A stretch of DNA of 64,000 nucleotides from a phage. Below are positions 3,293-30,853 of the stretch, piece by piece; positions within the stretch are counted from its first letter, which is position 1, and each line of letters opens with the position of its first letter. Made by a program: the position numbers and the translations under genes. The notes under the pieces are model-generated. The model ran no database searches. It was given only the letters and a program-made list of their open reading frames with translations, and was not told where the DNA came from. The stretch lies in sequence record PV419677.1. The stretch is one strand, 5' to 3'.

Positions 3293-5103
3293 TGAAACAG
3301 AATTTAAAAATTGGCAATATGGTTGATGATGGTACTGGTGATTACCTTCGTCTCGGCGGTCAAAAAATAAATAATAACTTTGATGACCTTTATTATCAGC
3401 TAGGGGACGGTGAAAATCCCCATGCAGCTGGTGCATGGAAAACTTGGACTACGCAAGAAGGCACCGAGTTGTCCGCTGTTATGGGTCGAAGCTATACCAT
3501 CGATACATCAGCCGGCGCAGTTCGAGTTATCCTTCCAAAAGGAACAACTCAAGAATACAATTATGTAATTCGCTTGCGTGATGTGTTTGCTACCTGGCAA
3601 ATCAACCCGGTGACAATTGTTCCTGCAGTTGGGGATACGATTAAAGGCTCACCGAATCCAGTAGAAATTAAACGCAACTTAGCTGACCTTGAACTTGTAT
3701 ATTGTTCACCAGGTCGTTGGGAATATATCGATAATAAACAAGTCGATAAAATTTCAAATAACGACGTTGCCACAGTTGCATCCCAACAGTTTATTGCCAC
3801 CGAAGGACAAACTGACTTTATCAATGTGTTTGGTGCTATTCCATATAGCATATCGAACTTAGAAGTCAAACATCGTGGTAACGACCTGTTTTATGGTAAA
3901 GATGATATTTTCGACCCGGTGAATGCTGAATTTGGTTCCCCTGGTGCAAACCCTGGTGAAATCGTTGCGCTTGATGGTAAAAGCATCCGTCTGAAAATGC
4001 CATGTGCTGAAGGTGATACTGTTATCATCCGAACATTTAATGATGGTATTGCTCAATGGCGTAGTTCGTATAATCGTCGTGATATACTTGTTCGTAGTCA
4101 AGACAGGACCAAAGAAACAACAATTAATGGCTCTTTGATTGTTACGGATTTGACAACCAAACACACCTTTACAATTGAAGAACTTGGTATTTCTCCGGGT
4201 AGCCCAATTAACCCAAACGCATGTCAGGTATTCATTAACAGTATTTTACAACACCAAGCCGGGACCGCAGGAACTCCAGTATTTTATTGCGAAGGTGCAC
4301 AAGGTTCTACTGCTGCAGAATGTAGTGCAAATGGTGGTAGCTGGTCTGAATCAAACCAGGATTATTTGCTGCAATTTGATGATGATAACCGTATCGAAGG
4401 CATTAGCATTTACCGTGAATTTGAAGACGGTGATATTCTGTCGGTCATTTGGTACAATAACGATATCGGCACAACTATGACCATGGATGAAATCCGTGAT
4501 GAGACTGATACTCTTTATGTTTCTCAGGGAAATACGTTGAGCCTAACCGGTCGTGTGCGTATTACAGATTTTGATAATCCGTTTGCACCAAACGTTGAAC
4601 CAGTCGGTCTTCAGGAAGTTGTTCCATCTTCTGTTGGCGCTATCTTTGAATTATTCTATCCGGTCGGTACAATTTACGAAAATACGGTTAACCCAAATAA
4701 CCCGGTTACTTATATGGGATTTGGTTCATGGAAACGTTTGAAAGAACGTGTAATTGTTGCCTGGTCAGACGACCCTGCCTCAAACTTCCATACAAACAAT
4801 AATGACCTGGATTCTGGTGGTAACCCACAAGCGACAGCAGGTGGTACAGGTGGTAGCGTTGAAGTTCATATTAAAGATATAAACGTACCTAAACTTGAAA
4901 CTGATGAGAAGGTTTTAGTTGTTGATGATAATGGTCCGATTGTTGTCGGTGGTTGTCAGGTAGACCCAGATGCACAAGGTCCAGCCTATACCAAATACAG
5001 AGAAGACAAAGCCACCATTAATCAGGCGCAAGACCCTCAAGCTCAACCAGTTTATACAATGCCTCCATATTTGATTGCTCATCGCTGGGTAAGGATTGCT
5101 TAA
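3292..5103 (+). CDS. gp10: Baseplate wedge/short tail fibre attachment protein gp10
   Basis: 603 aa (T4 602); position between gp9 and gp11; ATG overlaps gp9 stop. Confidence 0.85.
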   Translation: MKQNLKIGNMVDDGTGDYLRLGGQKINNNFDDLYYQLGDGENPHAAGAWKTWTTQEGTELSAVMGRSYTIDTSAGAVRVILPKGTTQEYNYVIRLRDVFATWQINPVTIVPAVGDTIKGSPNPVEIKRNLADLELVYCSPGRWEYIDNKQVDKISNNDVATVASQQFIATEGQTDFINVFGAIPYSISNLEVKHRGNDLFYGKDDIFDPVNAEFGSPGANPGEIVALDGKSIRLKMPCAEGDTVIIRTFNDGIAQWRSSYNRRDILVRSQDRTKETTINGSLIVTDLTTKHTFTIEELGISPGSPINPNACQVFINSILQHQAGTAGTPVFYCEGAQGSTAAECSANGGSWSESNQDYLLQFDDDNRIEGISIYREFEDGDILSVIWYNNDIGTTMTMDEIRDETDTLYVSQGNTLSLTGRVRITDFDNPFAPNVEPVGLQEVVPSSVGAIFELFYPVGTIYENTVNPNNPVTYMGFGSWKRLKERVIVAWSDDPASNFHTNNNDLDSGGNPQATAGGTGGSVEVHIKDINVPKLETDEKVLVVDDNGPIVVGGCQVDPDAQGPAYTKYREDKATINQAQDPQAQPVYTMPPYLIAHRWVRIA

Positions 5104-5768
5104 TGAAAACATTAACGAATAAAAAGGCTGGAGTAATTTCCCGCCTTGCTAGTTGCTTAGAATTTCAAAATACATCAAAAAATATTACGGCTGTCATGGG
5201 TCAACGAGCAATCGGCGGCCCATCTGCAACACAAACAACCGAGGGTATTTTTTATCCAACAGTTCAGAGCGCAATAGATGATATTGCGTTTCGATATGAG
5301 CTTCCGGTTGGCAGTGTAATTACTAATACGAATAACCTTTCTCCTGCGGCAATCAGTCAGTCGGATAAAATTAAATTTACCGGGTCTATTTCTGGTGCTG
5401 GAGTTGGTGATACTGTTTTATTTTTCATTTTTGGTATTCCAGTTGAGGTTATTGTCGGGGATTCGGCTGTATTAGTTGCTTCCAAGGTTAACGATGCTTT
5501 GCTGGCGGCTGTTGCTGATAGTTTAATTGTATCAAGCTCTGCAATTGATAGTGTAGACCAGTCTATATTAAATATTACATATAACGACTATCAAAACCAT
5601 AATTTTGCACCTTTTACTCAATATGGTTGTACGCTTAGCCAGACTATTATACAGCAACCGCGCGGTGGTTATGGTTCCTGGGAATATCTTGGAACTTCAA
5701 CCCAGACATTATCAGGTGGCACAGCAGATGGCGCAATTTCACTTTACCATTATAAGCGAGTATCGTAA
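5103..5768 (+). CDS. gp11: Baseplate wedge protein gp11
   Basis: 221 aa (T4 219); synteny 10-11-12. Confidence 0.85.
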   Translation: MKTLTNKKAGVISRLASCLEFQNTSKNITAVMGQRAIGGPSATQTTEGIFYPTVQSAIDDIAFRYELPVGSVITNTNNLSPAAISQSDKIKFTGSISGAGVGDTVLFFIFGIPVEVIVGDSAVLVASKVNDALLAAVADSLIVSSSAIDSVDQSILNITYNDYQNHNFAPFTQYGCTLSQTIIQQPRGGYGSWEYLGTSTQTLSGGTADGAISLYHYKRVS

Positions 5769-7318
5769 TGACAACGACTAACACGCTAAAACACATTAGC
5801 GATAAATCCGAATATAAAACATTCGACCCGACGGGAACAGCTTTCCCGTCGACTGTTACCAACGTACAAGAGGCTTTAGGGTCTCTTAATAAAATTGCGT
5901 TAGATGGATATATCCCAGCCTCATCCGAAACGACCGCAGGACTCATCAGGCTAGCCACCACACAAGAAGTTATTGATGGTATTAGTCCAGACTCTGCAGT
6001 TACTCCAGCGACCTTAAAAGCTCGTTTAGACATTCCTACGCAAGCTACAGAAACTTATGTAGGTATTACCCGTTATGCAACCAATGCCGAAGCAATTGCC
6101 GGGACAGTAACCGATGCAGCTATTGTTCCATCTTCATTAAAAGCAACAATTGATAATGTTTTTACTGTTCGTGTTGGTACTGAAAATAACCTGGGTGTTC
6201 TTCGTATTAGTACCGAGGATGCAGCTTTAGCTGGCACAGATGACACAACCGCTATGTCTCCGTTGAAAGTTGCTCTGGCAATTGGCAAAGCAACAGCGGC
6301 GCTTCCAACTTATTCAACTGCCACACAAACTGTTTCTGGTTTAGTACGAATTGCTACAAATGCTGAAGTGCAAGCAGGAACCCTGGGTGACGGTGTAGCA
6401 ATTTCTCCAGCAGGTTTAAATGCTCGTACAGCAACACAAGACCGCGCTGGGATTATTCGTCTTGGTAATCAGTCAGAGATTAATAACAGTGCTGATGGTG
6501 TTGCGGTAACTGGCGCAACTCTTAATGGTCGTGGAGCCACAACCGATAATCGCGGCGTCGTTAGATTAACTACTCAGGCTGGGGTTGCTCCTGGTGGTGA
6601 TGGTGCCGGTGCACTGGCTTGGAATGCTGATGTAATCAACACTCGCGGTGGTCAACGAATTAATGGAAGTCTTTCTTTAGATTATATTTCCACCGGCAAT
6701 TTTGATTCCAATACAGCTCATATGGGCGGTCAATTACTTTCTACACAGCGTTATGCTTCTGAACGGGTTCCAGTTGGAACGGTGATGATGTTCGCAGGTG
6801 ATAGTGCTCCTCCTGGCTGGATTATGTGTCACGGCGGCACCGTTAATGGGGACCAATTCCCCGACTATCGAAATACTGTTGGAACTCGTTTCGGTGGCGA
6901 TTGGACCAACGTCGGTATTCCTGATATGCGTGGTTTGTTTGTTCGTGGTGCTGGTACCGGTGGACATATTCTGAATAACCGCGGTCAAGATGGTTATGGC
7001 AAAGACCGTTTGGGTGTTGGTTGTGATGGTTCATGGGTCGGTGGTGTACAAGCTCAGCAAATGTCATATCATAAACACGCGGGTGGTTGGGGTGAATACC
7101 AACGTAACGAAGCTCCATTTGGTGCATCAGTTTATCAAGGTTATCTGGGTACAAGAAAATATGCAGACTGGGATAACGCTTCATATTTTACTAACGATGG
7201 ATTTGAACTCGGTGGCGGCAGAGATGCTTTAGGTACGTTAAACCGTGAAGGTCTTATTGGTTATGAAACTCGCCCATGGAATATGTCTTTAAACTATATT
7301 ATCAAAATTCATTACTAA
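5768..7318 (+). CDS. gp12: Short tail fibre protein gp12
   Basis: 516 aa; aligns with remembered T4 gp12 (e.g. ...GVVRLTTQAG..., ...QQMSYHKHAGG...). Confidence 0.9.
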   Translation: MTTTNTLKHISDKSEYKTFDPTGTAFPSTVTNVQEALGSLNKIALDGYIPASSETTAGLIRLATTQEVIDGISPDSAVTPATLKARLDIPTQATETYVGITRYATNAEAIAGTVTDAAIVPSSLKATIDNVFTVRVGTENNLGVLRISTEDAALAGTDDTTAMSPLKVALAIGKATAALPTYSTATQTVSGLVRIATNAEVQAGTLGDGVAISPAGLNARTATQDRAGIIRLGNQSEINNSADGVAVTGATLNGRGATTDNRGVVRLTTQAGVAPGGDGAGALAWNADVINTRGGQRINGSLSLDYISTGNFDSNTAHMGGQLLSTQRYASERVPVGTVMMFAGDSAPPGWIMCHGGTVNGDQFPDYRNTVGTRFGGDWTNVGIPDMRGLFVRGAGTGGHILNNRGQDGYGKDRLGVGCDGSWVGGVQAQQMSYHKHAGGWGEYQRNEAPFGASVYQGYLGTRKYADWDNASYFTNDGFELGGGRDALGTLNREGLIGYETRPWNMSLNYIIKIHY

Positions 7319-19202: not shown

Positions 19203-19630
19203 TGTTTATTATCCCTGATGATTACGAATTAACTCTTGAAAACATTGAAAGTGTTTCCGAAGAAGCTCAGGGACAATTTGATTCATTATCTGAAGCCTTA
19301 GAAAAAGACGATATAAATATTATTGTAGAAAACATGTTTGCAGCCGGTGAATATGAAAAAGCAACGGTTATCGGCGCGCTGAATGAAGGTGTTCAGCTTA
19401 ACGAATTTATCGTTAAACATGTATCGTCTCGCGGTGAGTTAACCCGCACAAAAGACCTAGCTACTCGTAAGCGTAATGCTTTCCAAACAACTGGTCTTTC
19501 TAAAGCTAAACGTCGTCAAATTGCCCGTCTGGCTACTAAAACAAAAAGAGCAAACCCATCTACGCAAATCAGAGCAGAGCGCAAGCGCAAAAAAGCTCGA
19601 GCTAAGCGTAAAGCATTCGGACTTGATTAA
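19202..19630 (+). CDS. gp68: Prohead core protein gp68
   Basis: 142 aa (T4 141); synteny. Confidence 0.8.
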
Positions 19631-20268
19631 TGGAACAGAAACCAGAGTTACTAATTGAACACTGGGGTCAACCGGGCGAAATTAAAGATGGTGTACCGAT
19701 GTTGGAATCTCATGACGGTTCCAGCAGCGGTTTAAAGCCAGGACTTTATATTGAAGGTATTTTCCTACAAGCTGAAGTTGTTAACCGTAATAAACGACTT
19801 TATCCTAAACATATTTTGGAAAAAGCCGTTGCTGATTATATGACAGAACAGGTTGCTACTAAACAAGCTTTAGGAGAATTAAATCATCCGCCCCGTGCTA
19901 ACGTCGACCCTATGCAAGCCGCTATTATTATTGAAGATATGTGGTGGAAAGGTAATGATGTATATGGCCGCGCACGTATTATCGAAGGCGACCATGGCCC
20001 AGGTGATAAACTTGCTGCAAATATAAGAGCAGGTTGGATTCCAGGTGTATCTAGTCGTGGACTTGGTTCCTTGACTAAATCAGCAAAAGGTTATAGCATC
20101 GTTAATGAAGGTTTTAAATTGACGGTTGGAGTAGATGCAGTATGGGGGCCAAGTGCTCCGGACGCTTGGGTCAAACCAAAGCAGATTACAGAATCACAAA
20201 CGGCAGTTGCCGATACCAGTGCCGATGACGCCTTTATGGCTCTCGCAGAGGCTTTAAAGACGTTATAA
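19630..20268 (+). CDS. gp21: Prohead core protease gp21
   Basis: 212 aa as in T4; position upstream of scaffold and major capsid genes. Confidence 0.85.
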   Translation: MEQKPELLIEHWGQPGEIKDGVPMLESHDGSSSGLKPGLYIEGIFLQAEVVNRNKRLYPKHILEKAVADYMTEQVATKQALGELNHPPRANVDPMQAAIIIEDMWWKGNDVYGRARIIEGDHGPGDKLAANIRAGWIPGVSSRGLGSLTKSAKGYSIVNEGFKLTVGVDAVWGPSAPDAWVKPKQITESQTAVADTSADDAFMALAEALKTL

Positions 20269-21140: not shown

Positions 21141-22700
21141 ATGAAAAAGAATGCATTAGTTCAAAAATGGTCCGCTCTGTTGGAAAACGAAGCTCTTCCG
21201 GAAATCGTTGGTGCTTCCAAACAAGCTATCATCGCTAAAATCTTTGAAAACCAGGAACAAGATATTCTGACCGCTCCTGAATACCGTGACGAAAAAATCT
21301 CCGAAGCATTTGGTTCTTTCCTGACCGAAGCTGAAATCGGTGGTGACCATGGTTATGATGCTACCAATATCGCTGCTGGCCAGACCTCTGGTGCAGTAAC
21401 TCAGATTGGGCCGGCAGTTATGGGCATGGTTCGTCGTGCTATCCCGCATCTGATTGCGTTTGATATTTGTGGCGTACAGCCTCTGAACAACCCGACTGGC
21501 CAGGTATTTGCCCTGCGTGCAGTTTACGGTAAAGACCCTGTAGCTGCTGGTGCTAAAGAAGCTTTCCACCCGATGTATGCTCCGAACGCTATGTTCTCTG
21601 GTCAGGGCGCTGCTCAGACTTTTGAAGCACTGGCTGCAGGTAAAGTTCTGGAAGTTGGTAAAATTTATTCTCACTTCTTCGAAGCAACTGGTTCCGCACA
21701 CTTCCAGGCTGTTGAAGCTGTAACCGTTGATGCTGGCGCTACTGATGCTGCTAAACTGGATGCTGAAGTTACCAAACTGCTCGAAGCTGGTCAGCTGGCT
21801 GAACTGGCTGAAGGTATGGCTACCTCCATCGCCGAACTGCAAGAAGGTTTTAACGGTTCCTCTGATAACCCGTGGAACGAAATGGGCTTCCGTATTGACA
21901 AACAAGTTATCGAAGCTAAATCTCGTCAGCTGAAAGCAAGCTACTCTATCGAACTGGCACAGGACCTGCGCGCTGTTCATGGTATGGATGCTGATGCCGA
22001 ATTGAGTGGTATTCTGGCTACCGAAATTATGCTGGAAATCAACCGCGAAGTTATCGATTGGATTAACTACTCCGCACAGGTTGGTAAATCTGGTATGACC
22101 AACACCGTTGGCGCTAAAGCTGGTGTGTTTGACTTCCAGGACCCGATTGATATCCGTGGTGCTCGTTGGGCTGGTGAAAGCTTCAAAGCTTTACTGTTCC
22201 AGATTGATAAAGAAGCCGCTGAAATCGCTCGTCAGACCGGTCGTGGTGCAGGTAACTTCATCATCGCTTCCCGTAACGTAGTTAACGTACTGGCTGCTGT
22301 TGATACTTCTGTTAGTTATGCTGCTCAGGGTCTGGGTAAAGGTTTCAACGTTGACACCACTAAAGCTGTGTTCGCTGGTGTTCTGGGTGGCAAATACCGT
22401 GTCTATATCGACCAGTATGCTCGTGCAGATTACTTCACCATCGGTTACAAAGGCGCTAACGAAATGGATGCTGGTATCTACTACGCACCATATGTTGCAC
22501 TGACCCCGCTGCGTGGCTCTGACCCGAAAAACTTCCAGCCGGTTATGGGCTTCAAAACCCGTTACGGTATCGGTATCAACCCGTTTGCTGACCCTGCTGC
22601 TCAGGCTCCGACCAAGCGCATTCAGAACGGCATGCCGGATATCGTTAACAGCCTTGGCTTGAACGGTTACTTCCGCCGCGTATATGTTAAAGGAATTTAA
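21141..22700 (+). CDS. gp23: Major capsid protein gp23
   Basis: 519 aa; near-identical blocks to remembered T4 gp23 (e.g. KQAIIAKIFENQE, GPAVMGMVRRAIP, YYAPYVALTPLRGSDPKNFQPVMGFKTRYGIGINPFA). Confidence 0.95.
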   Translation: MKKNALVQKWSALLENEALPEIVGASKQAIIAKIFENQEQDILTAPEYRDEKISEAFGSFLTEAEIGGDHGYDATNIAAGQTSGAVTQIGPAVMGMVRRAIPHLIAFDICGVQPLNNPTGQVFALRAVYGKDPVAAGAKEAFHPMYAPNAMFSGQGAAQTFEALAAGKVLEVGKIYSHFFEATGSAHFQAVEAVTVDAGATDAAKLDAEVTKLLEAGQLAELAEGMATSIAELQEGFNGSSDNPWNEMGFRIDKQVIEAKSRQLKASYSIELAQDLRAVHGMDADAELSGILATEIMLEINREVIDWINYSAQVGKSGMTNTVGAKAGVFDFQDPIDIRGARWAGESFKALLFQIDKEAAEIARQTGRGAGNFIIASRNVVNVLAAVDTSVSYAAQGLGKGFNVDTTKAVFAGVLGGKYRVYIDQYARADYFTIGYKGANEMDAGIYYAPYVALTPLRGSDPKNFQPVMGFKTRYGIGINPFADPAAQAPTKRIQNGMPDIVNSLGLNGYFRRVYVKGI

Positions 22701-22720: not shown

Positions 22721-22750
22721 AAAGGGACCCTTGGGGTCCCTTTCTTGTTT
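22721..22750 (+). terminator. Rho-independent terminator after gene 23
   Basis: AAAGGGACCCTTGGGGTCCCTTTCTTGTTTT. Confidence 0.7.
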
Positions 22751-23044
22751 TCATACCATACCATTTAAATGAACTTCTACCCGCCGCTTGATGAGGTCTC
22801 TGAAGTTAACATTGTTTTCTTGAAGTTTCAACCAGTTACCATTTTTATCTTTAGTGTGAGTAGAATAATTACCATTCCACCAGAAATCAGTGTCATATGC
22901 TAAGTTTTCATATTTTTTAACTAGTTTGTTCAGAGCATTGCCATTAACACCATTTGGGTATTTGTTGACCAATGCAATAACTTCAATTTCCAATTTTTTA
23001 AAGGTATTCAGAAGGAAAGTTGCTTTGTTCATTTTAGACTCCAT
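22751..23044 (-). CDS. Hypothetical small protein in the 23-24 intergenic slot
   Basis: 97-aa ORF (probable start at Met5, GGAG RBS); own GTTTAC...CATAAT early-type promoter at 23068-23098; unrelated to segD. Confidence 0.5.
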   Translation of the reverse strand: MESKMNKATFLLNTFKKLEIEVIALVNKYPNGVNGNALNKLVKKYENLAYDTDFWWNGNYSTHTKDKNGNWLKLQENNVNFRDLIKRRVEVHLNGMV

Positions 23045-23104: not shown

Positions 23105-23112
23105 TATAAATA
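23105..23112 (+). promoter_or_regulatory. T4-type late promoter TATAAATA (gene 24)
   Basis: Exact motif about 27 nt upstream of gp24 ATG. Confidence 0.6.
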
Positions 23113-23138
23113 AAGTATATCACAAAAGGAAAGCGCAA

Positions 23139-24419
23139 ATGGCAAAGATTAACAAATTACTGCGCGAGTCAACTATTACTACCAGCAACTCCTTGGGCCG
23201 CCCGAATCTTGTTGCTTTGACCCGCGCTACGACTAAATTGATTTACCGCGATATCATCGCTGAACAACGTACTAACCAGCCTGTTGCTGCACTGTATGGT
23301 GTTAAATATCTTACTCCTGATAACGAATTCAGTTTCCAGACGGGCGCTACTTATGGAGGTGAAGTCGGTTCTAAAGACCGTACAACTATTCCAGAGTTAG
23401 CTACAGCCACTCAACCTGTGGCTAAAGGCGAATATGTAAAATACCAAAATATCGTTTATAAAGCTCTGGTTGATAATCCATTTGCATCGACCACAGAAAC
23501 AGTGTTATCTGATGTTCTGCAAGAAGGTCTTATTGCATCGACTATTCGTTTAGTTCCTGATGCGGCACACACCGAGAAATTCGAAGCTGGTGATGTTGAA
23601 ATTAGCAATGCTGTATTCCAGGTTAACAAATGGAATGCCCCGGTTAAAACACGTAAATTGAAAACTGCATTAACTGTTGAACTTGCTCAGGATATGGAAG
23701 CAAATGGTTTTAACGCTCCTGCATTCTTGGAAGACCTGCTTGCCACTATTATGGCAGATGAAATTAACAAAGATGTTCTTCAGTCTCTTATTACCGTTTC
23801 CAAGCGTTATAAAGTAACTGGCGTTTCTGACAATGGCACCATCGATTTAACATACGATGCAGCCCCAGAAGGTGCACGTAAACTGTACGAACTGGTTTGC
23901 GAAATGAACTCCGAAATTCAGAAAACTACATCTTATTCCGGTACCTTTGTTGTTGCCTCTAGCCGTGTTGCTGCTATGTTGGCCGGTTCTGGTTGGTTGA
24001 AACACAGGCCAGAAGACGAACAGTGGCTCCCCGAAACAGCGTACGGTTATTTGATTAATGGCCTCCCTGTATTCTGTGATGTTAACAGTCCATTGGATTA
24101 TGTAACTGTTGGTGTTAAAGAAAATTACGGCGGAAACGAAGTCGTAGGCTCAATTTTCTATGCTCCTTATACCGAAGGCCTGGACTTGGATGATGAAGAG
24201 CACGTTGGTGCGTTTAAGGTCATTGTGGACCCAGACAGCTTGCAGCCATCTATCTCTCTGATGGTTCGTTACGCACTTTCAGCTAACCCGTACACCGTTG
24301 CTAAAGACGATAAAGAAGCTCGTATTATCGATGCAACCAATATGGATTTAATGGCCGGTCAGAGCAATATGTCTTATCTGCTCGGTGTTAAACTTCCGCC
24401 AATCATTTATGAGGCGTAA
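23139..24419 (+). CDS. gp24: Head vertex protein gp24 (copy 1, T4-like)
   Basis: 426 aa; aligns with remembered T4 gp24; TATAAATA at 23105. Confidence 0.9.
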   Translation: MAKINKLLRESTITTSNSLGRPNLVALTRATTKLIYRDIIAEQRTNQPVAALYGVKYLTPDNEFSFQTGATYGGEVGSKDRTTIPELATATQPVAKGEYVKYQNIVYKALVDNPFASTTETVLSDVLQEGLIASTIRLVPDAAHTEKFEAGDVEISNAVFQVNKWNAPVKTRKLKTALTVELAQDMEANGFNAPAFLEDLLATIMADEINKDVLQSLITVSKRYKVTGVSDNGTIDLTYDAAPEGARKLYELVCEMNSEIQKTTSYSGTFVVASSRVAAMLAGSGWLKHRPEDEQWLPETAYGYLINGLPVFCDVNSPLDYVTVGVKENYGGNEVVGSIFYAPYTEGLDLDDEEHVGAFKVIVDPDSLQPSISLMVRYALSANPYTVAKDDKEARIIDATNMDLMAGQSNMSYLLGVKLPPIIYEA

Positions 24420-25703
24420 ATGCAAAAGATTAATGCACTAATTCACGAATCAACATTAACGGCGGCCAACCAGGTCGCCCGTCCTAATTTGCTTTCTTAT
24501 ACTCAAGCCACGAATAAACGAATTTTTAAAGCGCTCGTGGCCGAACAGAAAACTACCCAGCCTGTTGCAGCGCTGTATGGTGTTCGTGTTCTGAACCCAG
24601 ATGATAAAATGACTTATCTCGGTGGAGCAACATTTGCAGGTCAGATTGGTATGTTCGAGCGTAAGAATATTCCAGAATTTACAAACAAAGACGAAGCTTA
24701 TGCAGTCGGCGATATGTTCCAGTTTGAAAGTGTTGTGTTCAAAGTTTTGGAAGCATCCCCATTCGCCGGTACACTCGAAACTGATTTAGGTGAAGTTATT
24801 TCTGAAGCCATTGCTGCTGGGCATATAAGAATGATGTCAGATGCTGCTTTCACTGATAAATTTGAAAAGGGGCATCCTGAAATTGCTGAAGCTGGTTTTC
24901 GTATCGATAAATGGCAGACTGAAGTTAAATCCAGAAAGTTGAAAACTTCTTTAACTGTCGAGCTTGCCCAGGACCTGGAAGCAAACGGTTTTGATGCAAC
25001 AGACTTCATCGATAATATTCTCGGCATTCAAATGGCAGAGGAAATTAATAAGGATGTATTGCAATCCCTTATTACTGTTAGTTCCCGCTTCAAGGTGCAA
25101 GGTGTTTCGGAAAAAGGTGTATTGAATCTTACTGACCCGAAATATGATAATGCCCAGGACCGCGCACGAACCCTGTATTATTATATGTGTGAAATGAATT
25201 CTGCAGTTCAACGTCAGACTTCGTTTGCTGGTACATATGCAGTTGCTTCTTCCCGTTGTGCAGCTATTTTAGCCGCTTCTGGCTGGGTTGAGAAAAAGGA
25301 AGACCAGGATGAATTGGCCTATGGTGTTCTGAAGAACGGTTTGCCTCTTTACGCTGATATGAATAGTCCATGCGATTATGTTATTGTTGGTGTAAATGCG
25401 GATATGGGTGAAGGTCAGACGGTCGCATCTTTATATTATGCGCCTTATACGGAAGGACTTAGCGAAGTTGATGATGAGGGTGATACCTCGGTTGGGGAAT
25501 TCAAGGTTATTGTTGACCCTGAAAGCTTACAGCCTACGGTTGCACTGTTAGCTCGTTATGCTTTGACTGCGAACCCTTACACCGTTGCTAAAGATGATAA
25601 AGAAGCTCGCCTTATTGATGGAGCTGATATGGATAAGATGGCTAACCAAAGTCAATTGAGTTCTTATCTTGGCGTTAAACTTCCACCGCTGGAAAAAGAA
25701 TAA
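24420..25703 (+). CDS. Head vertex protein gp24 paralog (copy 2, divergent)
   Basis: 427 aa; roughly half-identical to copy 1 by eye, with shared blocks RKLKT.LTVELAQDLEANGF and TANPYTVAKDDKEAR; ATG directly abuts copy 1 stop (TAAATG). Confidence 0.85.
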   Translation: MQKINALIHESTLTAANQVARPNLLSYTQATNKRIFKALVAEQKTTQPVAALYGVRVLNPDDKMTYLGGATFAGQIGMFERKNIPEFTNKDEAYAVGDMFQFESVVFKVLEASPFAGTLETDLGEVISEAIAAGHIRMMSDAAFTDKFEKGHPEIAEAGFRIDKWQTEVKSRKLKTSLTVELAQDLEANGFDATDFIDNILGIQMAEEINKDVLQSLITVSSRFKVQGVSEKGVLNLTDPKYDNAQDRARTLYYYMCEMNSAVQRQTSFAGTYAVASSRCAAILAASGWVEKKEDQDELAYGVLKNGLPLYADMNSPCDYVIVGVNADMGEGQTVASLYYAPYTEGLSEVDDEGDTSVGEFKVIVDPESLQPTVALLARYALTANPYTVAKDDKEARLIDGADMDKMANQSQLSSYLGVKLPPLEKE

Positions 25704-25727
25704 GGGCCTTGCGGCCCTTTTTTTATT
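25704..25727. terminator. Bidirectional terminator between gp24 paralog (+) and rnlB (-)
   Basis: GGGCCTTGCGGCCC followed by TTTTTTT. Confidence 0.65.
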
Positions 25728-27124: not shown

Positions 27125-27324
27125 TTCTTCACCTTTTTGTTATTCAAACGTTTACGATAAACAATCTTTTCTTTCGCTTTAAATTTAGCTTTGGCTTGTT
27201 CTACATCAACCCAGGCCTTTGCCATCTCTTTAGCAGTCCCGCCTAATACCTTGGCGATTTCAATAAATGTCATACCAGATTCATGCAGAAAATGTACTTT
27301 AACCTTATCCATAATGATTCTCAT
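27121..27324 (-). CDS. Hypothetical small basic protein (T4 24.3-like by position)
   Basis: 67-aa ORF with K-rich C-terminus; start site uncertain (Met1 or Met5). Confidence 0.45.
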   Translation of the reverse strand: MRIIMDKVKVHFLHESGMTFIEIAKVLGGTAKEMAKAWVDVEQAKAKFKAKEKIVYRKRLNNKKVKK

Positions 27325-27464
27325 GTTGAGTTAGTGAAGTTATCTTAACATGGAATTTTTAACTTGTAAACATGATTTTTATGCCAGATGAACAATTGCA
27401 TGGTATGGTCACAAAGACTCACTAGAGAAGGGTCCAGGTAACATTTGCCCAGTACCATAAAAAT

Positions 27465-27491
27465 AAAGGGACCCGAAGGTCCCTTTTTAAT
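27465..27491 (-). terminator. Rho-independent terminator after hoc
   Basis: GGGACCCGAAGGTCCC flanked by A/T runs. Confidence 0.65.
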
Positions 27492-29299: not shown

Positions 29300-29317
29300 G
29301 ATGAACCTCGGTTAGTG

Positions 29318-29325
29318 TATAAATA
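29318..29325 (+). promoter_or_regulatory. T4-type late promoter TATAAATA (uvsW)
   Basis: Exact motif about 29 nt upstream of uvsW ATG 29354. Confidence 0.55.
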
Positions 29326-29353
29326 TAGATATATTTATTACCTTGGAATCATC

Positions 29354-30853
29354 ATGGATATTAAAATCAACTTTCTAAATTTTAGTCACGTGCATGTTGA
29401 ATGTGAAGATGGAATCTTCTACGAACTCCGTGATTACTTCAGCTTCGAAGCTGAAAACTATCGCTTCAATCCAAAATTCAAGCAGGGAGTTTGGGACGGA
29501 CGAATCCGCCTCCTGGATTACAATCGTAAATTACCATACGGTTTGGTTAATCAAATTAAAAAGTTCGCTGACCAGTTTGGCTATTCATTCTGGATTGACC
29601 CACAAATCACCGAGAAAGAAGAAATCTCTCGCGAAGAATTCGACAAATGGGTCGAGTCAAAAGAAATCTATTCAGGCAATACTAAGATAACTCCTCATTG
29701 GTATCAATCTGACGCCGTATATGATGGTCTGGTCAACAGAAGAAAGATTCTGAACTTACCTACGTCTGCGGGTAAAAGCCTCATCCAGGCGCTTCTGGCG
29801 CGATATTATCTCGAGAACTATGAAGGCAAAGTACTTATCCTTGTTCCTACAACTGCGCTCGTTGACCAGATGATTAATGACTTTGTTGATTATCGTCTGT
29901 TCCCTCGTGAAGCTTGTCTGGGTATTCGTTCTGGTACCAAACGCGATTCTGATGCGATGATTTATGTATCGACTTATCAGACGGCTGTAAAACAACCTAA
30001 AGAATGGTTTGAACAGTTTGGTCAGTTTATGAATGACGAATGTCATATGGCGACAGGTAAATCAATTTCGACGGTTATCGAAGGCCTTACGAATTGTATG
30101 TTTAAATTTGGTTTGTCAGGTTCACTCCGTGACGGCAAAGCCAACCTTATGCAATATATGGGTCTGTTTGGTGATATCTTTAAACCGGTATCAACATCTA
30201 AATTGATGGAAGATGGTCAGGTCACTGACCTTAAAATAAATAGTATTTTCCTTCGTTACCCTGATGAATTTACCGTTAAAATGAAAGGTAAAACTTATCA
30301 GGATGAAATTAAGGTAATTACAAAAGCTACACGCCGAAATAAATGGGTAACAAATCTTGCTCTCAAGCTTGCTAAAAAAGATGAAAACGTCTTTTTGATG
30401 TTTAAGAATATCGAGCACGGTAAATCGATGTTTGAAATGCTTAAGGAAGCTGGTCATGAGAAAGTGTATTATGTTTCCGGGGAAGTTGATACCGAAACTC
30501 GTAATGCATTAAAGGTCATGGCAGAGAATGGAAAAGGAATTATTGTTGTAGCTTCATACGGTGTATTTTCGACGGGTATTTCCGTTAAAAACCTCCATCA
30601 TATTATTTTCGCTCACCCGGTCAAATCAAAGGTAATTGTACTCCAGACAATTGGCCGCGTGCTTCGAAAACATGAATCCAAATCGACCGCAAACGTTTTT
30701 GATATCGTGGATGATATGGGGGTCAAACCCAAATCAGCAAATGCTAAAAAGAAATATGTTCATTTGAACTTTGCTCTAAAGCATGGTCTTGAACGCATAC
30801 AACGATATGCAGACGAACAATTCAATTATGTAATTAAACAGGTGGAAATATAA
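29354..30853 (+). CDS. uvsW: UvsW DNA/RNA helicase
   Basis: N-terminus MDIK..F..FSHV...C matches T4 UvsW; helicase motif I PTSAGKS and motif II DECH; TATAAATA at 29318; track ORF trimmed to ATG 29354. Confidence 0.9.
   Translation: MDIKINFLNFSHVHVECEDGIFYELRDYFSFEAENYRFNPKFKQGVWDGRIRLLDYNRKLPYGLVNQIKKFADQFGYSFWIDPQITEKEEISREEFDKWVESKEIYSGNTKITPHWYQSDAVYDGLVNRRKILNLPTSAGKSLIQALLARYYLENYEGKVLILVPTTALVDQMINDFVDYRLFPREACLGIRSGTKRDSDAMIYVSTYQTAVKQPKEWFEQFGQFMNDECHMATGKSISTVIEGLTNCMFKFGLSGSLRDGKANLMQYMGLFGDIFKPVSTSKLMEDGQVTDLKINSIFLRYPDEFTVKMKGKTYQDEIKVITKATRRNKWVTNLALKLAKKDENVFLMFKNIEHGKSMFEMLKEAGHEKVYYVSGEVDTETRNALKVMAENGKGIIVVASYGVFSTGISVKNLHHIIFAHPVKSKVIVLQTIGRVLRKHESKSTANVFDIVDDMGVKPKSANAKKKYVHLNFALKHGLERIQRYADEQFNYVIKQVEI

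Follow-up and report, generated by a model that had tools for sequence, protein, structure and literature searches.

A second gene 24 paralogue in a T4-like phage, most likely part of a conserved two-gene vertex-protein module of the JS98/VR7 type

Bacteriophage T4 is the reference system for capsids with a dedicated vertex protein, and reviews describe a single protein, gene product 24 (gp24), as filling all 11 vertices. Certain T4-like phages carry two gene 24 copies in tandem, which are named 24(1) and 24(2) in vB_EcoM-VR7 (VR7; HM563683), 24a and 24b in JS98 (EF469154, Dhakavirus), and "capsid vertex protein I/II" in VR5, VR20, VR25 and VR26. Tandem pairs also occur in Gelderlandvirus, in Marfavirus, in the Erwinia phages Cronus, IT22 and FBB1, and in metagenome contigs, and the abstract of Chibani-Chennoufi et al. 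2004 reportedly mentions a "gene 24 duplication in JS98". Here, we analyse such a pair, gene 24(1) (copy 1) and gene 24(2) (copy 2), in a 64,000-nucleotide stretch of phage DNA (sequence record PV419677.1), which is referred to as the window. The initial annotation of this DNA regarded the pair as remarkable; it is, however, known already and has been annotated for years in public genomes, those listed above and many others among them. In the open-access literature, we found no paper on the function of two gp24 genes, on the presence of both products in virions, or on the capsid structure of such a phage. What sequence comparison adds is that the pair is ancient, that copy 2 is monophyletic and always accompanied by a copy-1 partner, and that the two genes behave as separable modules. 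The most likely explanation of the locus is the two-gene vertex-protein module that is conserved in T4-like phages of the JS98/VR7 type.

The two genes are located in the window as follows:
23139..24419, + strand: gene 24(1) (copy 1), 426 amino acids, T4-type capsid vertex protein
24420..25703, + strand: gene 24(2) (copy 2), 427 amino acids, divergent capsid vertex-type protein

The stop codon TAA of 24(1) directly adjoins the ATG of 24(2) (TAAATG, 24417..24422, + strand). BLASTP aligned the two products over their full length with 55% identity and 75% positives (E = 1e-172), in agreement with the initial annotation, which had described two full-length divergent gp24 paralogues placed head to tail, the second roughly half-identical to the first and retaining core blocks. 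The quoted blocks were indeed present in both copies (RKLKTALTVELAQDMEANGF / RKLKTSLTVELAQDLEANGF and SANPYTVAKDDKEAR / TANPYTVAKDDKEAR). Both proteins matched PF07068, the Gp23 family, with 329.4 bits for copy 1 and 327.5 bits for copy 2 (curated cut-off 24.4 bits), and PHROG 138 with 438 and 414 bits, respectively. Among solved structures, T4 gp24 (1YUE) scored 645 bits with copy 1, over the full length, and 497 bits with copy 2, whereas gp23 chains scored 44-51 bits, and both copies also matched the gp24 chain a of 5VF3 far above gp23; among solved structures, none was closer to either copy than gp24 of T4 itself. For an AlphaFold2 model of copy 2, the best Foldseek match was T4 gp24* (5vf3_a; template modelling (TM) scores 0.81/0.83, E = 1.5e-48), against TM scores of about 0.6 for gp23 chains. 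Copy 2 is predicted by this model to have the HK97-type fold with an insertion domain, as in solved gp24, and both products would be complete gp24-type proteins with an HK97 fold and an insertion domain in the E-loop, in the case of copy 1 as judged from its sequence match.

The first 10 residues of T4 gp24 are removed by the prohead protease (PMC9958956), and the corresponding features of the window are the following (↓ marks the cut):
23139..23168, + strand: predicted propeptide of 24(1), MAKINKLLRE, 10 residues, cut expected after Glu10 (L-x-E↓S)
24420..24449, + strand: predicted propeptide of 24(2), MQKINALIHE, 10 residues (I-x-E↓S)
19630..20268, + strand: gene 21, prohead protease, at the same place in the gene order as VR7 gene 21

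The gp21-type cleavage motif reads LRE↓S in copy 1 and IHE↓S in copy 2, and the pattern (L/I)-x-E-S was found at the T4 gp24 cut position in all 26 copy-2 proteins examined. Since a 10-residue propeptide ending in (L/I)-x-E is kept in both copies, gp21 would trim both products after residue 10, as it does T4 gp24. The protease is expected to process both gp24 precursors, a role taken over from T4 (PMC9958956).

Both open reading frames (ORFs) were intact in every pair locus read. The ratio of non-synonymous to synonymous substitution rates (dN/dS, Nei-Gojobori) between the window and VR7 was 0.038 for copy 1 and 0.028 for copy 2, with dS at about 0.4, and dN/dS did not exceed 0.15 in any of the 15 genome pairs compared, by the same method. 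On this evidence, both genes are functional and under strong purifying selection. The initial annotation had considered that one copy might carry disabling mutations, or that an assembly error might have created the duplication. Neither was borne out. No disabling mutations were present, both copies having a dN/dS close to zero (0.04 and 0.03) and a preserved cleavage motif, and the nucleotide sequences of the copies are only 60% identical with a longest exact run of 17 nucleotides, which excludes both an assembly artefact and recent gene conversion between the copies. The same arrangement, moreover, recurs in 68 records that cover at least 80% of the pair region, and protein-level comparison gives about 120; these records come from unrelated laboratories and from metagenomes. 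An assembly artefact, or a decaying duplicate on its way to becoming a pseudogene, found no supporting evidence, is contradicted by intact ORFs with dN/dS far below 1, and can be regarded as refuted, with a probability that is close to nil.

The 2.8-kb region that contains the pair was 98.7% identical at the DNA level to Escherichia phage ECML-359 and Yersinia phage vB_YenM_P8, 91.8% to VR7, which is a Gaprivervirus, and 81.6% to JS98; judged by these identities, the window phage is a Gaprivervirus. Whereas 68 records matched in DNA, a tblastn search at the protein level found a copy-2-type gene in 122 phage records. Matching places exceeded matching records by 119 in this search, among about 1,380 T4-like records, and all 45 records among the matches listed had exactly two gp24 places. 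In every locus read, copy 2 was the second gene of a tandem pair. Two full-length gp24 genes on the same strand with the T4-like copy first are present in the window, an arrangement seen in 11 loci, and the intergenic gap ranged from -4 to +1 nucleotides in all of these 11 pair loci, which represent at least five lineages. The metagenome-contig versions of copy 2 were only 66-77% identical to that of the window.

The relationship between the copies was analysed with bootstrapped neighbour-joining trees of 22 and 44 taxa, in which support refers to unrooted splits. Both trees contained a single copy-2 clade with 100% bootstrap, and 24(2) of the window was inside it. All copy-1 genes were grouped together with gp24 of Tequatrovirus (T4), Mosigvirus, Karamvirus, Moonvirus and Kanagawavirus at 97-99% bootstrap, and copy 2 was positioned outside this clade. 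Copy 1 was 69% identical to Tequatrovirus gp24, compared to 56% for copy 2 and 55% for copy 1 against its own neighbour, which supports the description of copy 1 as T4-like in the initial annotation. By grouping and identity, copy 1 is an ordinary T4-type vertex protein, and copy 2, which has been kept beside copy 1 only, is most likely an ancient paralogue with its own evolutionary course, or was gained long ago from another phage.

The Kimura distance between copy 1 and copy 2 was 0.67, and their distances to gp24 of Acinetobacter phage Ac42 were 0.60 and 0.65, respectively, which puts copy 2 as far from copy 1 as the gp24 of this Acinetobacter phage; distances to outgroups were about equal for the two copies in general. 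Tajima relative-rate counts were 49 versus 61, 50 versus 63, 48 versus 41, and 41 versus 43, none of which was significant, and one of the five outgroups gave unbalanced counts (38 versus 67). Because the outgroup distances are equal and the Tajima counts are balanced for four of the five outgroups, and with copy 1 grouped with T4 gp24, a recent duplication within the lineage followed by fast divergence of copy 2 was rejected. A simple recent tandem duplication does not fit the data either, as the two lineages separated near the deepest gp24 divergences sampled. The split between the copies is about as old as these divergences, with no clear acceleration of rate. Identities between genomes ran parallel for the two copies:
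Window versus Gelderlandvirus: copy 1 84.2%, copy 2 84.3%
Window versus Marfavirus: copy 1 73.9%, copy 2 80.4%
Window versus metagenome contig L016: copy 1 64.5%, copy 2 69.5%

In places, however, the trees of the two copies conflict with strong support. A copy-2 subclade supported at 96% (P0015, P0013, P0007 and P0014) had its copy-1 partners in three different well-supported clades, and judged by these trees the copies have been exchanged independently between lineages. We found no copy-1 residue that tracked the presence of copy 2 across clades. Each candidate column for such a signature was confined to one clade, and P0084 and P0045 resembled their single-copy relatives, so that a copy-1 signature of copy-2 presence was rejected. 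In metagenome contig L021 (3067-7278), gp23 was 94.4% identical to gp23 of Jiaodavirus FRZ284, yet a gp24 pair was present, consisting of a Karamvirus/T4-like copy 1 and a copy 2, whereas the only gp24 of FRZ284 itself (L005, 2360-5281) belongs to a different type, about 64% identical to both window copies. Exchange seems to be concentrated at the position of gene 24.

A separate observation concerns JS98, in which the pair occupies positions 4050-6614 of locus L002. Its 24a groups with 24(1) of VR5 (L014), to which it is 95.5% identical, and its 24b groups with Gaprivervirus 24(2) at 98% bootstrap, being 95% identical to the window protein and 90% to that of VR5. These groupings point to a recombination breakpoint between or within 24a and 24b, which would have joined Dhakavirus and Gaprivervirus sequence.

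In the copy-1 tree, pair-bearing lineages are interspersed with single-copy ones, T4 included. This implies either repeated loss of copy 2, also in the line leading to T4, or its repeated transfer into the slot 3' of gene 24. One reading takes the two-vertex-protein state as ancestral for much of the Tevenvirinae, with the single gp24 of T4 the result of secondary loss, and adds to it a specialisation for vertex classes or for the docking of fibres. It is compatible with a copy-2 clade as deep as the gp24 radiation, with interspersed copy-1 partners, and with near-equal outgroup distances, and we consider it unlikely as a whole. The two proteins may then be specialised for the two geometric classes of vertex in a prolate head, the single apical vertex on the five-fold axis versus the ten where the caps join the mid-section; alternatively, copy-2 pentamers may dock a vertex-specific fibre. 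Repeated horizontal transfer of copy 2 would explain the distribution equally well, and the gp23 tree, which is poorly resolved among genera, does not separate ancient duplication with losses from horizontal transfer.

Expression signals around the pair were as follows:
22721..22743, + strand: terminator-like hairpin 3' of gene 23, upstream boundary of the 24(1)-24(2) unit
23105..23112, + strand: T4-type late promoter motif TATAAATA, 26 nucleotides 5' of the 24(1) start
23126..23132, + strand: Shine-Dalgarno-like AAGGAAA 5' of 24(1), from reading of the sequence
24411..24414, + strand: Shine-Dalgarno GAGG for 24(2), within the 3' end of 24(1), 5 nucleotides before the ATG
25702..25726, + strand: hairpin AAGGGCCTTGCGGCCCTT (25702-25719) followed by a T run, with the shape of an intrinsic terminator

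A motif scan found 19 copies of TATAAATA in the window, where 4.6 were expected. The copy at 23105 was the sole one on the + strand from gene 23 to the end of 24(2), and no second copy was present on that strand from 23113 to 25703. The hairpin at 25702 closes the 24(1)-24(2) unit and is common to the convergent rnlB gene. These signals, a single late-promoter motif, terminator-like hairpins on both flanks and a GAGG within the 3' end of 24(1), are most simply read as one bicistronic late mRNA whose two genes are translationally coupled, and the proposal in the initial annotation that both genes are co-transcribed from the promoter at 23105 fits the motif and terminator scan. The late promoter would drive a bicistronic mRNA that ends at the 25702 hairpin, and 24(2) would be translated from its own GAGG site; since its start adjoins the stop of 24(1), translational coupling is probable. 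The two genes also share a reading frame with only the TAA between them, and read-through would generate an 853-residue fusion. A conserved read-through fusion was nevertheless rejected, as the junction is -4, -1 or +1 nucleotides in other lineages, and the same-frame junction in this phage is probably incidental.

Based on these findings, we consider it probable that both genes are expressed from a common late transcript, that both products are trimmed by gp21, and that both end up in the five-fold vertices. The two proteins would occupy the 11 non-portal capsid vertices as pentamers, surrounded by hexamers of gp23. Independent swapping of the genes between lineages, together with the lack of copy-1 changes tied to copy 2, suggests that pentamers are not obligately mixed and that each protein builds homopentamers at vertices of its own. 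A 5:50 split of the copies between apical and lateral vertices is an attractive idea, as the apical vertex of a prolate head is geometrically unlike the ten lateral ones. Heterogeneous vertices, a paralogue at the unique vertex and a decoration role, all put forward in the initial annotation, are reasonable suggestions of a speculative kind.

Several points weigh against a vertex role for both proteins. T4 and about 90% of T4-like phage records have one gp24, so that copy 2 must be dispensable for building a prolate head. The codon adaptation of copy 2 is somewhat lower than that of copy 1 (0.43 versus 0.49), and equal expression of the copies is therefore not assured. The AlphaFold2 model of copy 2 is of only moderate confidence, with a predicted local distance difference test (pLDDT) score of 69, and the idea of separate homopentamers has phylogenetic modularity as its single line of evidence. 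Finally, our search of the open-access literature found neither proteomics nor a structure of a phage with two gp24 genes that would report presence or amount of either product in the virion.

The success of T4 with one T4-type protein leaves room for copy 2 as a conditional or back-up vertex protein. Either protein would then fill any vertex, and the second would widen the conditions for assembly or survival, such as temperature, pH or host, or allow escape from a host defence or an antibody. The VR phages have been described as low-temperature coliphages. Independent gene exchange also suits this explanation, since no co-adaptation is needed, and absence of gp24 alters the stability of the capsid in acid and to digestive enzymes (PMC10580926). 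However, simple redundancy rarely lasts so long, and dN/dS was 0.03-0.07 for both copies across lineages in which dS is saturated. Seventeen positions at which the copy-2 clade and the other Tevenvirinae-type gp24 proteins each have a fixed but different residue also speak against it, as does the fact that every copy-2 gene found retains a copy-1 partner. We regard a back-up function as a real but minor possibility.

The location of these differences is relevant to another alternative, in which copy 2 has acquired a new role outside the vertices, as a docking site for decorations or fibres, as a special portal-adjacent capsomer, or as a factor that acts in assembly and is absent from the mature head. 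The signature differences include, in approximate numbering, L34R, Y57V, P243Q, E334Q and L414Y. Seven of the 17 signature positions lie within residues 25-57, a stretch assigned approximately to the N-arm plus the E-loop base, and upon expansion of the T4 shell the N-terminal regions of its proteins shift to the outer surface, where they contact neighbouring subunits (PMC9958956). The least similar region between the copies, with 30-40% identity, spans residues 61-140 and is taken as covering the insertion domain. In several pair-bearing lineages, genes for fibre-like and Hoc-like proteins directly follow 24(2), which would also fit a new role. Yet copy 2 retains the complete length of gp24, its predicted fold and its propeptide, the extra fibre-like and Hoc-like genes are absent from the window and from most pair-bearing phages, and the fibre-like gene is found in other phages too, some of which are not T4-like. 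A non-vertex role for copy 2 is improbable in our view, and placement of both proteins in the vertices remains the preferred reading.

The additional genes themselves were observed in the Cronus/FBB1-like pair-bearing phages, which have two further + strand genes 3' of 24(2). The first encodes a fibre-like protein of 332-352 amino acids, homologous to the collagen-like ORF196w of VR7 and VR5, and the second matches the Hoc-like ORF197w over its C-terminal 80 or so residues. They were located in the following loci:
L016, 4890-6427: fibre-like and Hoc-like region
L017, 6345-7900: fibre-like and Hoc-like region
L018, 2676-4506: fibre-like and Hoc-like region
L019, 2634-4140: fibre-like and Hoc-like region
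L001, 10453-12682: ORF196w and ORF197w of VR7

The fibre-like gene was found in 34 phage records, and its T4-like carriers are mostly, but not exclusively, pair-bearing. In the window, which lacks both genes, the spacing between 24.3 and hoc is just 167 nucleotides (27324-27491). A link between copy 2 and these genes was therefore not retained, the association being partial and both genes being absent from the window. Their products may be extra head decorations.

The pair sits within the late head-gene cluster, 3' of gene 23 and 5' of rnlB, hoc and inh, in the order 20-67-68-21-22-23-(small minus-strand ORF)-24(1)-24(2)-rnlB-24.2-24.3-hoc-inh-uvsW. The genes rnlB, 24.2, 24.3, hoc and inh are on the minus strand, 3' of 24(2). 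The remaining features are listed below:
21141..22700, + strand: gene 23, major capsid protein, 519 amino acids, after the annotation of the homologous VR7 gene
22751-23044, - strand: 97-amino-acid ORF between genes 23 and 24(1)
29315-30853, + strand: uvsW ORF as listed, with a GTG start

The 97-amino-acid ORF matched PHROG 6003, a family without an assigned function (E = 1e-46), and gave no Pfam match. It has counterparts at the same position in VR7 (ORF190c), JS98 (orf173), VR5 and Mosigvirus HX01, and at this place between genes 23 and 24, Slopekvirus phage Matisse carries a SegD-like GIY-YIG homing endonuclease instead. With its GTG start, which overlaps a TATAAATA motif (29318-29325), the uvsW ORF as listed gains 13 odd residues, MYKYRYIYYLGII; translation more likely begins at the ATG of MDIKINF, at about 29354.

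About 9% of T4-like phage records, those of the JS98 group included, have a second vertex-protein gene that is ancient and under strong selection, and for the capsids of these pair-bearing phages the T4 model would thus be incomplete. Phages of the JS98 group have been used in work on phage therapy. Should each of the two proteins have its own vertices, they would constitute a natural case of chemically distinct vertices in one shell, and would provide a handle for vertex-specific display in phage engineering. The value of the locus lies in this structural question of the second protein, rather than in a sequence finding that is already present in the databases.

Compared to known systems, the locus is closest to the modules of VR7, JS98 and VR5/VR20/VR25/VR26, which consist of the same two genes between gene 23, with the small minus-strand ORF, and rnlB, and have the same TAAATG junction. 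The VR7 proteins are 97% (copy 1) and 98% (copy 2) identical to those of the window, and the JS98 proteins 89% and 95%. VR7 and VR5 have the collagen-like and Hoc-like genes between 24.3 and hoc, whereas the window is without both, and nothing else of substance differs. T4 gp24 (1YUE, 5VF3 chain a) is a single vertex protein, of which 55 copies form 11 pentamers (PMC9958956). It shares family, fold, length and the gene neighbourhood with the window copies, for which a 10-residue propeptide like that of T4 gp24 is predicted, but T4 has one gp24 gene and the window phage has two. The paralogy of gp23 and gp24 within T4 follows the same principle, a duplicate of a shell protein being kept beside its relative for a distinct position in the lattice (PMC9958956, PMC10580926). 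T4 gp23 and gp24 are, however, only about 20% alike in sequence and structures show how they divide the labour, whereas the gp24 copies of the window are 55% identical and a division of labour between them is hypothetical. Finally, bacterial microcompartment (BMC) loci encode several paralogues of the pentameric vertex protein BMC-P, with an average of 1.7 BMC-P genes per locus (PMC13185644). This is an analogy only, as BMC-P has an unrelated fold (Pfam 03319, not HK97) and the shells are non-viral.

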